Shown: positions 10,780-24,183, counted from the first letter of the stretch. The stretch: DNA of 64,000 nucleotides from an uncultured Alphaproteobacteria bacterium (GCA_934277545.1 CAKQUG010000008.1:6862-70861), one strand, 5' to 3'. Numbers and translations are program-made. Notes: generated from the sequence alone by a model not told the origin.

Positions 10780-10842
10780 ATGAAAAATAAGCTATTCAAA
10801 GGTCTCTCTCTCTCTCTCTGCAAATCCTATATCTCTAATTAG
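10780..10842 (+). other. Short upstream ORF (MKNKLFKGLSLSLCKSYISN*) with a strong RBS (GAGGAAAG), out of frame by one relative to the downstream pilin-like ORF; contains the (TC)8 tract
   Basis: ATG at 10780 is preceded by gaggaaagaaag. The pilin-like reading frame is open from 10784 to 11581 but has no ATG before 10985. Adding one TC unit to (TC)8 fuses the ATG at 10780 to the pilin-like frame. Confidence 0.5.
10803..10818. repeat. (TC)8 dinucleotide simple sequence repeat (candidate slipped-strand phase-variation tract)
   Basis: ggTCTCTCTCTCTCTCTCtgcaaatcc read directly. It lies between the RBS-linked ATG and the conserved pilin-like coding region. Confidence 0.8.
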
Positions 10843-10984: not shown

Positions 10985-11581
10985 ATGATTGAAATGCTGG
11001 GCGTTTTGGCTATCATAGGCGTATTATCTGTCGGCGGTATTGCAGGATATACCAAAGCCATGGAAAAGTTTAAATACAACAAAATAACACAAGAATACAC
11101 AGATTTGATATTTGGTTTGTTGCCTTTTATCAATACTCTTCCCGATCAAAATGGCGAAAATAATGTAGTAAATGAAGGTATAACAGAGTTAGCCGATTCC
11201 TTAAATTTAATTCCTAAAACTTGGCGCATAACATCAAGTAAAGTGGTAATGGATGAATATGGCAACAATTTGAACTTATTTATCAGAAACGGACAACTTG
11301 TTTTAGATGTTTACTTGTCTGTAAGCGGAGAAAGTCAACAATTTTACAAATTTTGCCAAGAATTTACAACAAACTTTATTCAGCCTTTACACTCTGTTTT
11401 ATATCGTTTGAGAATGTATAAAGCATCAGGCGTGGGCACTGTACGCGTTTATTACGGCAGCGATTATTGCACTGCAGATAATAAATGTATTAAAGACTTA
11501 ACCGTTGCAGAAACCGATAATTATTGCAGAAGCTGCGGTGAAAGTGGAAAATGCGCCTTAGCTTTTGAATTTCCTAAATAA
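10985..11581 (+). CDS. Type IV pilin-like / pseudopilin-like protein (class III prepilin N-terminal domain); the expressed form probably extends upstream (open frame from 10784)
   Basis: ..GEVG|RSMIEMLGVLAIIGVLSVGGIAGYTKAMEKFK matches the prepilin processing and hydrophobic-helix consensus (G at -1, E at +5, roughly 20 hydrophobic residues). Paralog of the 23086..23859 gene. C-terminal Cys pair. Confidence 0.6.
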   Translation: MIEMLGVLAIIGVLSVGGIAGYTKAMEKFKYNKITQEYTDLIFGLLPFINTLPDQNGENNVVNEGITELADSLNLIPKTWRITSSKVVMDEYGNNLNLFIRNGQLVLDVYLSVSGESQQFYKFCQEFTTNFIQPLHSVLYRLRMYKASGVGTVRVYYGSDYCTADNKCIKDLTVAETDNYCRSCGESGKCALAFEFPK

Positions 11582-14909: not shown

Positions 14910-15809
14910 TTACACTGTATGCAAATAGCGGGAAAGCCGAAAGTATTGACGCAAACTCCAAAGCAGACACATTTCCTTGCGAAAGCTGCCGTGTTTTTTG
15001 GAGTTGATTAAGCGACGGTAGAGATGATTGAGATAAAACAGCTGCACGCCGTAAAGCCAATATTCAGCACTGATTTCATTTTTCAACAGCGATTCAATCA
15101 TTTTCCGCAGCTTGGCAAAACGCCCTATTCTGCCCCATAAGCCGCGAAAACCGCTCAGTTGTAAAAACAGGTAACAAATATCTTCAGTTTCGTAACCATA
15201 GCGGATTTGTTCAAAGTCAAGCAAATACGGCGTTCCGTTTTTATCCAGCAAAATATTGTTTTCCGTCAAATCGCCGTGAATAAACTCGGCACTGCTTTCC
15301 AAACACACAAGTTCCGGCTCTATTTTTTGCCAAAAATATTTATTTAGTAAACGTCCGGACAAACTTTGGTCTTTTTGCAGACATTCTGAAATTTTTGCAA
15401 TCATTTTCGGCATATTTTGCTGCGGCTGAATAAATTCCGCCGGCAAATCGCAAGCCCGAAACTTATTATATTCCGCCTGCAGTTTGGTAAACAGCTCGGG
15501 CGAGCAATCTTTATATTTCAGCTTACGTCCAACCACATACGGCATTGCCAATAAATAAAAATTTGCAAACTTTTCCACAGACAGCGGATACAAAAAATCT
15601 AGCTGCGACAACACCTTTTTCATATACAAAAATACGCCTCTCTCTCTCTCTGCAGAAATCAGCTTCAAGAAGAATACGCCTTGTACCGTTTTAATGCAAA
15701 AATTATACGAACTGCCGCCTAAACAAACTTCTTTAATACTCAATATTTGAGGAAAAATTTGCTTTTTTCGTAGGAAATCGGCTAATTCTTTGTTTTGAGC
15801 AAACTTCAC
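14910..15809 (-). CDS. Choline/ethanolamine-kinase / aminoglycoside-phosphotransferase (APH/ChoK) family kinase; contains an in-frame (CT)7/(GA)7 tract
   Basis: Brenner-type catalytic motif IHGDLTENNILL plus a downstream DFE. Roughly 300 aa, as in LicA-type choline kinases. The start overlaps the pheA stop by 4 nt. Confidence 0.65.
   Translation of the reverse strand: MKFAQNKELADFLRKKQIFPQILSIKEVCLGGSSYNFCIKTVQGVFFLKLISAERERGVFLYMKKVLSQLDFLYPLSVEKFANFYLLAMPYVVGRKLKYKDCSPELFTKLQAEYNKFRACDLPAEFIQPQQNMPKMIAKISECLQKDQSLSGRLLNKYFWQKIEPELVCLESSAEFIHGDLTENNILLDKNGTPYLLDFEQIRYGYETEDICYLFLQLSGFRGLWGRIGRFAKLRKMIESLLKNEISAEYWLYGVQLFYLNHLYRRLINSKKHGSFRKEMCLLWSLRQYFRLSRYLHTV
15638..15651. repeat. (CT)7 dinucleotide repeat inside the kinase CDS (encodes ERER on the coding strand)
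   Basis: cgcCTCTCTCTCTCTCTgcagaaatc read directly. Flanks resemble those of the (TC)8 tract at 10803. Confidence 0.8.
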
Positions 15810-23085: not shown

Positions 23086-23859
23086 TTACAAAAACTCCAT
23101 TACAAATATGCATAAATCATTATTTAACCGGCAAGTATTGCAAACATTTTGAATTTCGGTCATTGACGCGTTTACCAAACAATTATTACCGGAACAATAT
23201 TTATCGCCTAAAAAGTATGTTCCGTCGACCTGGTCTCGATAAACACCGGCACGAAAAACAATGCCATGCAACGGCTGCAGCAAGTCTCTTAACAAATTCG
23301 TACACATTTTATAGGAAAAAGTTTCCGTAATATATTTATTATTAACGGATTTACCTGTTCCCAAGTGAACATCAAAAACAAGATGCTGCGACCGAATAAA
23401 GGGTACAACCTGATTTCCGGTTGAATCATAAAAAACAGAACCTGATTTTTTCCAGCTTCCGGGAACAAGATTCATCCCTTCAACCACATTTGCAATTATA
23501 TATGATTCTGAAATAGAGGAAAGCGGTGTAAAAGAACTTTCATGTTCAAGCAAACCGCTGATTAAATAACTGTATTCTTCCAACAATTTATTCAGCTTAA
23601 ATTTTTCCATAGCTTTGGAGTAACCGGCAATTCCACCGACACTCAGCACGGCGATAATCGCCAGAACACCAAGCATTTCTATCATTGACCGACCAACCTC
23701 GCCTTGTTTTTCGTCATTATGAGCACAGCGAAGCAATGACGATAGAGTATGGGGCAAAGTTGATTGATTGCATCGTTTTACTCGCAATGACGATAGAGTA
23801 TGGGACAAAGTTTTAAATGTCCTACTCTTCTTCAATAAAAATTCTATACCTTTCAACAC
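23086..23859 (-). CDS. Type IV pilin-like / pseudopilin-like protein with a 58-aa N-terminal extension (GTG start, RBS AAGGAGG); paralog of the 10985..11581 gene
   Basis: ..HNDEKQGEVG|RSMIEMLGVLAIIAVLSVGGIAGYSKAMEKFK aligns with the other paralog. Differences in the NDE-K/R-QGEVGRS codons are synonymous (aga/cgg, agc/tca, gaa/gag). The extension contains a 17-aa tandem duplication (TLSHTLSSL / TLPHTLSSL). Confidence 0.6.
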   Translation of the reverse strand: MLKGIEFLLKKSRTFKTLSHTLSSLRVKRCNQSTLPHTLSSLLRCAHNDEKQGEVGRSMIEMLGVLAIIAVLSVGGIAGYSKAMEKFKLNKLLEEYSYLISGLLEHESSFTPLSSISESYIIANVVEGMNLVPGSWKKSGSVFYDSTGNQVVPFIRSQHLVFDVHLGTGKSVNNKYITETFSYKMCTNLLRDLLQPLHGIVFRAGVYRDQVDGTYFLGDKYCSGNNCLVNASMTEIQNVCNTCRLNNDLCIFVMEFL

Positions 23860-23876
23860 GTTGTTCCTCCTTGGTG

Positions 23877-23896
23877 GTGTAAAAAAAACGACCGTT
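23877..23896. repeat. Left 20-bp inverted repeat GTGTAAAAAAAACGACCGTT bounding a 134-bp segment (candidate invertible promoter or MITE)
   Basis: Perfect 20/20 reverse complement of 24031..24050. Starts 17 bp upstream of the pilin-like gene start codon. Confidence 0.8.
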
Positions 23897-23970
23897 ATTT
23901 TTACACACTTCGAACAACCATCTGAAAATTCTTAAAAATCAGCAAAAAATCTCGTAATTATAAAAAGTTA

Positions 23971-23999
23971 TTGCAAAAACAGCAAACCTTTGCTAAATT
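23971..23999 (+). promoter_or_regulatory. Sigma70-like promoter (TTGCAA-17 bp-TAAATT) inside the IR-bounded segment, currently pointing away from the pilin-like gene and toward gltX
   Basis: Hexamers and 17-bp spacer read directly. No comparable promoter is seen on the opposite strand of the segment. Confidence 0.4.
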
Positions 24000-24030
24000 G
24001 CAAAAAGAAGCTATTTTAAAGTCCGATTTA

Positions 24031-24050
24031 AACGGTCGTTTTTTTTACAC
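24031..24050. repeat. Right 20-bp inverted repeat AACGGTCGTTTTTTTTACAC
   Basis: Perfect complement of 23877..23896. The AACG/CGTT arms flank an asymmetric central dinucleotide. Confidence 0.8.
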
Positions 24051-24183
24051 ACTTTTGACAAAACATCCCTAAAATTCAAAATCTTTTTACAAGTTAAAAA
24101 CTCCATAAAAATCTTGCAATACGCAAATTTTAGTCTATTCTAAGGATAATTAACTATAAACCAGATTAGAGGATTGTTATAAA

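Follow-up and report, generated by a model that had tools for sequence, protein, structure and literature searches.

The 64,000-nucleotide (nt) stretch analysed here, called the window throughout (CAKQUG010000008.1:6862-70861, from an uncultured Alphaproteobacteria bacterium), carries a small repeat-bounded element between a pilin-like gene on the minus strand and gltX, the gene for glutamyl-tRNA synthetase, on the plus strand. An earlier reading of this region made without database searches (the sequence-only reading) had proposed that the element is an invertible promoter switching the pilin-like gene ON and OFF or, alternatively, a miniature inverted-repeat transposable element (MITE). The locus is present in human-gut metagenome assemblies, as revealed by exact-protein look-ups, and the sources of homologues of the adjacent pilin-like protein are metagenome-assembled genomes (MAGs) labelled 'Alphaproteobacteria bacterium'. 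The following features lie at the locus, with positions counted from the first nucleotide of the window.

23086..23859, minus strand: type IVb pilin-like gene (257 aa), an open reading frame (ORF) with its GTG start at 23859; this is the 'close' gene, whose ribosome-binding site (RBS) abuts the left site
23733..23812, minus strand: 51-bp tandem duplication of a small palindromic repeat, in frame within the leader-coding region of the pilin-like gene
23866..23872, minus strand: RBS AAGGAGG, followed after 6 nt by the GTG start; the left site is 4 nt away on its other side
23877..23906: left crossover-type site, with outer arm GTGTAAAAAAAACG (23877-23890), core AC (23891-23892) and inner arm CGTTATTTTTACAC (23893-23906)
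23893..24034: candidate invertible segment, 144 bp from core to core
23957..23985, minus strand: second promoter-like pair, TTGCTG (23985-23980) and TATAAT (23962-23957) spaced by 17 nt, reading toward the pilin-like gene
23971..23999, plus strand: conserved promoter-like element TTATTGCAA-17-TAAATT, pointing to gltX and away from the pilin-like gene
24021..24050: right crossover-type site, with a degenerate inner arm GTCCGATTTAAACG (24021-24034), core GT (24035-24036) and outer arm CGTTTTTTTTACAC (24037-24050)
24055..24082, plus strand: promoter-like site TTGACA-16-CAAAAT, found by a consensus scan (10/12 positions), outside the segment
24184..25623, plus strand: gltX ORF; in most other copies of the element, a second pilin-like gene gated by a (CT)n tract sits in its place

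The element is bounded by a perfect 20-bp inverted repeat, with GTGTAAAAAAAACGACCGTT at 23877-23896, its exact reverse complement at 24031-24050 and 134 nt between the two. The left copy lies 17 nt away from the GTG start that opens the pilin-like ORF on the minus strand. All of this, including the AAGGAGG motif, agrees with what the sequence-only reading had described. Allowing for up to three mismatches, the 20-mer was confined to the pilin-gltX locus within the window; the expectation from shuffled sequences was 0.05, and three matches were reached in none of 100 shuffles. A 30-bp palindrome, GTGTAAAAAAAACG-AC-CGTTATTTTTACAC (23877-23906), which had previously been overlooked, includes the left repeat as one half; 13 of its 14 arm positions are palindromic. 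The two sites resemble the crossover sites of serine invertases, in that A/T-rich arms enclose an asymmetric 2-bp core, which is AC in the left site and GT in the right one. Rfam and tRNA scans gave no match at the locus, and a terminator scan found none there. Readings of the repeats as REPIN/RAYT elements or as integron attC sites were dropped, since the sites lack the hallmarks of both and match the recombinase family that is actually present.

Strain variants were observed within the repeats themselves. The right arm reads CGTT[T/A]TTTTTACAC (also given as CGTT[T/A]TTTTT), or T7 in the strain locus L177, the variable position being 24041 of the window. An A to T change at position 10 of the left arm (window position 23886), again in L177, turns the left site into a perfect palindrome. 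Repeat-internal variants are listed for L004, L007, L008, L011, L174, L176-L179 and L181.

Inside the segment, the plus strand carries TTGCAA (23971-23976) and TAAATT (23994-23999) separated by 17 nt and directed away from the pilin-like gene, as originally noted. The -35 hexamer, the 17-nt spacing and a TAnnnT motif are kept in all element classes, and from this conservation alone we infer that the element is a promoter. The opposite strand, for which a comparable -35/-10 pair had been denied, does have one, TTGCTG-17-TATAAT at 23985-23957. This pair is not conserved across the family: strain variants of its -35 hexamer read TTGCAG, TGTCGG and TTGCGG, and other element classes lack a properly spaced minus-strand -35. 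Promoter-like hexamers for gltX had also been placed outside the segment, and the site TTGACA-16-CAAAAT (24055-24082) could indeed serve gltX in either orientation of the segment.

The sequence-only reading had suggested searching for further copies of the 20-mer and for invertases. In related genomes both are present, with dozens of repeat copies per genome and invertase genes of the Mpi family. A scan with GTGTAAAAAWAACGACCGTT, using one genome per species, returned at least 108 8-kb blocks, almost all from gut alphaproteobacterial MAGs. At least 72 sites were counted in the MAG CAKQRZ and at least 47 in CAKQDU, and one MAG contained at least 36 site pairs. At loci L012-L016, homologues of the pilin-like gene in other genomic contexts are preceded by the same repeats and the same internal promoter. 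The 20-mer almost always abuts the RBS of a pilin-like gene at a distance of 4-6 nt, and the geometry of RBS and site was repeated at ~90 distinct homologous junctions. The general order of the module is a pilin-like gene with its RBS, a palindromic AC site, the segment with its promoter pointing away, a half-degenerate GT site and a right flank that is usually a second pilin-like gene. In 47 aligned copies with exactly the spacing of the window, no position of either site is less than 90% conserved, and parts of the interior are variable. Homology among these copies passes the repeats on both sides, reaching at least 60 nt into the RBS and the MFKGIEF leader on the left and often into a second promoter on the right. 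Their flanks contain no direct repeat; the left one ends in ...ATTAT or ...AATT and the right one begins with ACTT... The degenerate inner arm, GTCC-N-TTTTAAACG, is conserved among the copies as well.

The cores of these sites follow a strict rule. AC or GT is found in 288 of 293 sites, and all 117 pairs spaced 90-320 bp apart have opposed cores, with equal cores found in 0; the exact 144-bp core-to-core spacing is shared by 96 of the 117. The serine-invertase layout that the sequence-only reading had seen in the repeat core is thus borne out across the family. A serine invertase needs opposed cores to produce an inversion rather than a deletion, and in those subclasses with perfectly symmetric arms the core alone gives the site its direction. 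The RBS-abutting pilin-like ORFs were open in 108 of 111 distinct copies, which suggests that they are expressed at some time. Some element-bearing blocks (L017, L021, L024, L056 and others) belong to bins labelled Bacteroidaceae, [Ruminococcus] gnavus or Eubacteriales; bins with such non-alphaproteobacterial names are probably mislabelled or contaminated.

Comparison of sister elements at orthologous or paralogous loci revealed four independent cases in which the segment between the same sites lies in opposite orientations. Between L024 and L115, the orthologous flanks are collinear and 92% identical, and the 179-bp element, 96.6% identical, lies in opposite orientations. The segment of L065, upstream of MFKSVKK pilin-type genes, is 99.4% identical to those of L100, L096, L135 and L109 and flipped relative to them, with flanks that are ~80% identical. 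A further inversion separates L040 and L067 from L103. Finally, L036 and L111 share a collinear left flank and gene, and their segments align with a score of 147 when one is reversed versus 32 in the forward direction; these two are class-4 elements, which have one degenerate half-site and evidently flip nonetheless. Across the sister classes, the promoter points toward the RBS-abutting gene in 6 copies and away from it in 10. Taken together, these alignments show that sites of this family mediate inversion. Two of the segments compared above, L065 592-766 and L100 420-594, lie in the same MAG (CAVGVF); that they are inverted and yet 99.4% identical, between flanks of only ~80% identity, points to homogenisation or exchange of segments between loci.

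Candidate recombinases are encoded in related genomes. In CAKQRZ, the product of the gene at L032:3048-3707, a serine recombinase of 219 aa, reaches 293.6 bits against the NCBIfam model NF009949, 'master DNA invertase Mpi family', and a second gene, at L124:1958-2605 in CAVKTH, scores 275.8 bits (cutoff of the model, 272). NCBI gives the same Mpi-family name to homologues in other alphaproteobacterial MAGs. In L032, the Mpi-like gene lies 3.8 kb from the nearest element. A 94%-identical homologue is apparently present in CAKQDU, a MAG that also holds L116, one of the orthologous pilin-element-gltX loci. The sole match outside the gut alphaproteobacterial lineage among the matches listed came from an Acaryochloris MAG (L039 2978-3710, JANQPU010000188.1), where a gene for a Hin-like serine invertase is preceded, at a distance of 128 nt, by the identical 20-mer in a near-palindrome of 14-2-14 layout.

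On balance, the element probably belongs, as one module among many, to a set of serine-invertase switches of the Mpi/Hin type that extends across the genomes of uncultured gut Alphaproteobacteria. Each module would comprise two ~30-bp sites in inverted orientation, with A/T-rich arms ending in ACG/CGT around an AC or GT core. An Mpi-family invertase encoded in trans would bind both sites, cleave the cores at 23891-23892 and 24035-24036 and rotate the 144-bp segment between them; the recombination chemistry and the role assigned to the core are borrowed from the Hin family of serine invertases by analogy. In the observed state, the conserved promoter would fire toward gltX and the pilin-like gene, without a conserved promoter of its own, would be OFF, depending at best on the non-conserved minus-strand pair. 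In the inverted state, the conserved promoter would come to lie ~60 nt upstream of the pilin start and the gene would be ON, with TTCCTCCTTGGTGGTGTAAAAAAAACGACCGTTTAAATCGGACTTTAAAATAGC and GGTTGTTCGAAGTGTGTAAAAATAACGGTCGTTTTTTTTACACACTTTTGACAAAAC as the expected new junctions.

As to the subclass to which the window copy belongs, we are inclined to think that it still inverts and is strongly biased to the observed state. The strong bias is proposed because a flipped copy was found in no consensus assembly; a preference for OFF would be natural in a family of many dozen genes of which each cell has just a few ON. Continued inversion is favoured because the repeats are conserved far above the interior and class-4 elements flip despite their half-degenerate sites, and also because nearly all RBS-abutting ORFs are intact even though, in the observed orientation, they lack a conserved promoter of their own.

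Several observations weigh against this interpretation. Both promoters inside the segment, on the plus as well as on the minus strand, fall below the threshold of the consensus scan, and the minus-strand TTGCTG-17-TATAAT is decent in the window copy, so that the pilin-like gene may not need inversion. The 64-kb window contains no serine recombinase according to a tblastn screen for this type alone, in which Hin and gamma-delta resolvase served as queries; this agrees with the sequence-only reading, which had found no recombinase gene there and assigned any invertase to trans, and the Mpi-family genes of related genomes would fill that role. We found no flipped version of the window copy. The window and 12 other assemblies of the locus (13 in all) share one orientation; these same-locus contigs were gathered through exact-protein look-ups with gltX, ASCH and pilin, and contigs with the same neighbours were collapsed, which hides minor variants. 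The orthologous loci L051, L116 and L146, from three other species-level genomes or contigs, all have this orientation too. Among 90 distinct junctions of the subclass that are flanked by RBS and leader, every promoter points away and none is flipped at the pilin gene, and a pattern for the flipped left junction (CCTCC-N6-inverted repeat-TAAA) gave 0 matches in the metagenome collection versus 49 unflipped contigs. The subclass (0/90) differs in this from the sister classes, in which 6/16 promoters point toward the gene (Fisher test, p = 5e-6; run with 0/90, before the exception described next was inspected). Moreover, the degenerate inner arm of the right site may mean that the switch is locked. 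All of this evidence on orientation derives from consensus assemblies. Inversion is directly visible in the site family, and for the window copy and its subclass we infer it. What holds of the switch first proposed is the kind of element, which is of the Bacteroides type and has sister segments in both orientations; inversion of the window copy or of the ~90 members of its subclass was never seen.

The exception is L019 1471-1644 (CAKQPS010000001.1), the only promoter-toward junction among 91, which abuts the RBS of a non-pilin membrane-protein gene (MFSYRNKILC...). L019 is the closest relative of the element type found in the window, and its inverted repeat is 17 nt longer and includes the RBS on both sides. 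Contig breaks were also considered as a sign of inversion heterogeneity, as the right repeat contains the starts of four Logan contigs, and three contigs of CAKQRZ stop exactly at the inner edge of a repeat. We discounted them: in other contigs the end lies 0-38 nt beyond the repeat, the Logan contig on the left side breaks off within the conserved leader, and repeat copy number explains the breaks equally well.

The uniform orientation could also be explained by a static module, that is, a descendant of an invertible promoter whose right inner half-site has degenerated and which is now a fixed divergent regulatory region. Its plus-strand promoter would feed the downstream gene and its weak minus-strand promoter the pilin-like gene, and the repeats would persist through concerted evolution or as protein-binding operators. 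This would account for the lack of flipped pilin-gene junctions among 90, as opposed to 6/16 in the fully palindromic sister classes, for the identical orientation of the gltX locus in three species and for the existence of TTGCTG-17-TATAAT in the window, and it would suit the conservation of the degenerate arm GTCC-N-TTTTAAACG, which may have another role. However, conservation of the 20-bp repeats at 90% or more in 47 copies around a variable interior is expected if a recombinase still uses them, the half-degenerate elements L036 and L111 are flipped relative to each other, and the minus-strand promoter is not kept across strains or classes. All-OFF consensus assemblies would likewise result if each family member were ON in a few percent of the cells. 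We regard a locked module as a serious possibility, albeit the less likely one.

Two further explanations would dispense with inversion altogether. Divergent transcription would put the same RNA sequence into both 5' leaders, and the repeat could thus be a hairpin or protein-binding motif acting at the RNA level instead of a recombination site. Indeed, the left palindrome folds as a 13-pair hairpin on the pilin strand just upstream of the RBS (-8.5 kcal/mol, z = -3.2). The right copy, by contrast, has no partner arm in its transcript and its leader folds worse than shuffled sequences (z = +1.37), the strict AC/GT opposition of an unpaired core has no rationale in RNA, and the observed inversions together with the presence of an invertase explain the anatomy better, which makes an RNA element improbable. 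Still less credit is due to the MITE alternative of the sequence-only reading, a 174-bp non-autonomous transposon with 20-bp terminal inverted repeats and an outward promoter by chance. Terminal inverted repeats, dozens of copies per genome and the frequent breaking of contigs at the element are what one would expect of a MITE, but homology among the copies continues beyond the repeats into the RBS and MFKGIEF leader on one side and a second promoter on the other, no target-site duplication exists in the 47 aligned copies, and the genic context is fixed at 4-6 nt from the RBS of pilin-like genes. In addition, an invertase family that matches the sites is present, but we saw no partner transposase. 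The proposal fails on these grounds, and we consider it very improbable.

The label 'pilin-like' for the gene next to the element was examined at the level of sequence and predicted fold. The protein has a 55-residue leader ending in ...GEVG|RSMIEMLGVLAIIAVL and the features of a class III signal, namely a leader ending in Gly, Glu at +5 and a hydrophobic N-terminal helix, in a stretch that is invariant in 13 aligned homologues. More than 7400 homologues were found among 8000 candidates scored, with an invariant N-terminus (GRSMIEMLGVLAI / G|RSMIEMLGVLAI). Sequence-only Pfam and PDB searches with the pilin-like protein returned sub-threshold N-terminal matches only, and for 10 of 13 members the match to Pfam N_methyl was below the threshold. 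As modelled by AlphaFold (predicted local distance difference test, pLDDT, 85), a homologue has a long N-terminal helix (11-57) packed on a beta-sheet. Its best fold match in the PDB was the type IVb pilin of S. typhi (3fhu; probability 1.00, template modelling (TM) score 0.61 on the target), followed by an Xcp pseudopilin. The predicted fold thus justifies the label, specifically as type IVb-like, an assignment that fits with the long leader peptide. The arrangement of pilin-like gene, element and gltX is orthologous in L051, L116 and L146.

The leader is itself variable. Its coding region (23695-23859, minus strand) contains repeat units of the TCGTCATTGCGAG type at 23733-23761 and 23784-23812, and strains with a single unit encode a protein of 240 aa instead of 257 aa. 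Leader inserts range from 26 to 129 codons across 111 homologues, and the reading frame is open in all but 3. This suggests in-frame insertions of palindromic repeats into a cleavable leader.

In the partner ('far') pilin-like genes of other modules, a (CT)n tract comes after the starting sequence MKNK[LQ][FS]KG. The length of the tract predicts the reading frame exactly across 43 distinct instances: the frame is +2 for n=7 and +1 for n=8, and with n=6 (3 instances) the ATG shares its frame with G|RSMIEML, the open reading frame being confirmed for one of the three (L161). The window contains an example of its own, a second pilin-like paralogue on the plus strand with an ATG at 10780, (CT)8 at 10804-10819 and an ORF at 10985-11581 that is out of frame; a further (CT)7 tract is found at 15638-15651. 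Judged by tract length and frame, this pattern is the signature of slipped-strand translational phase variation of the textbook type.

The closest known system is the Mpi (FinA) regulon of Bacteroides fragilis, in which Mpi inverts 13 dispersed promoter regions in trans, seven of them capsule promoters (PMC4747536). One Mpi-controlled promoter of B. fragilis is strongly OFF-biased (PMC10403206), and the repeats of the regulon are described as hix-like according to a title cited in PMC3090145. Both systems have a short promoter segment (144 bp here, with a putative promoter) between inverted repeats of ~20 bp and many dispersed copies with one small serine 'master' invertase encoded elsewhere; the invertase of related genomes passes the NCBIfam equivalog cutoff for Mpi, and the targets are surface structures of a gut commensal in both cases. 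The core consensus of the Bacteroides Mpi repeats, ARACGTWCGT, appears close to the AAACG(AC/GT)CGTT found here. The proposed OFF bias has its parallel in some Bacteroides promoters (PMC10403206). However, the host here is an alphaproteobacterium and not a member of the Bacteroidales, the targets are single type IVb pilin-like genes instead of polysaccharide operons, and the copies per genome are far more numerous (at least 36 pairs in one MAG). Further differences are the degenerate half-site in the subclass of the window, of which no flipped copy was seen, and the position of many modules between two divergent genes, the second of them gated by a (CT)n tract.

Other systems share parts of this architecture. 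In Hin/hix and Gin/gix of the Din family, too, the sites are inverted relative to each other and consist of two A/T-rich half-sites with a 2-bp core between them, and Hin carries a promoter on its invertible DNA; one half-site of a Din-type pair may be poorly conserved, as in hixR. The identical 20-mer beside a Hin-like gene in Acaryochloris adds to this resemblance. Unlike the module described here, the hin and gin genes lie inside or beside a single segment of 1-3 kb and their inversion needs a Fis-bound enhancer; here, the segment is 144 bp long, the recombinase is distant, the targets number in the dozens and no enhancer was identified. The sequence-only reading had also invoked fimS of E. 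coli. The resemblance is one of logic: fimS is an invertible promoter that adjoins a structural gene for fimbriae or pilin, switches it ON and OFF and is biased toward OFF. The comparison is wrong in its mechanism, since fimS is a tyrosine-recombinase switch with 9-bp repeats, flanking sites for the recombinase, IHF and Lrp, and the adjacently encoded recombinases FimB and FimE, whereas the site anatomy and the related-genome invertase are of the serine type here. MITEs are likewise small, non-coding and present in many copies with terminal inverted repeats, and differ in that the element described here has no target-site duplication, flanks that are conserved together with it and a fixed genic context.

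What is known, then, is the Mpi-type invertible promoter of the Bacteroides kind, and what is new are the lineage and the target genes; a text search of the literature found such switches described neither in gut Alphaproteobacteria nor upstream of genes of this pilin family. Viewed as a whole, the repeats, cores and tracts allow a broader proposal, which we put forward tentatively and would not yet call probable: uncultured gut Alphaproteobacteria may run a two-layer, genome-wide system of antigenic variation, in which several dozen strongly OFF-biased invertible promoters per small genome, serving a greatly expanded type IVb pilin-like family, are combined with separate (CT)n gating of the partner gene downstream of each promoter, one or a few of ~50-100 pilin-like genes are made in each cell and segments are possibly exchanged between loci. 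The one-orientation subclass with its degenerate half-site is a natural test case for whether site asymmetry sets the bias of inversion. Flipping of the cassettes would account for the poor assembly of these genomes, and the junction sequences would let phase states be read directly from existing gut metagenomes. If the cassettes flip, a little-known set of uncultured gut Alphaproteobacteria of humans and animals would vary pilus-like surface proteins much as Bacteroides varies its capsules, with many more switches per genome and a second, slipped-strand layer on top. Master-invertase phase variation would thereby extend to a new phylum-level lineage and to a new class of target genes.

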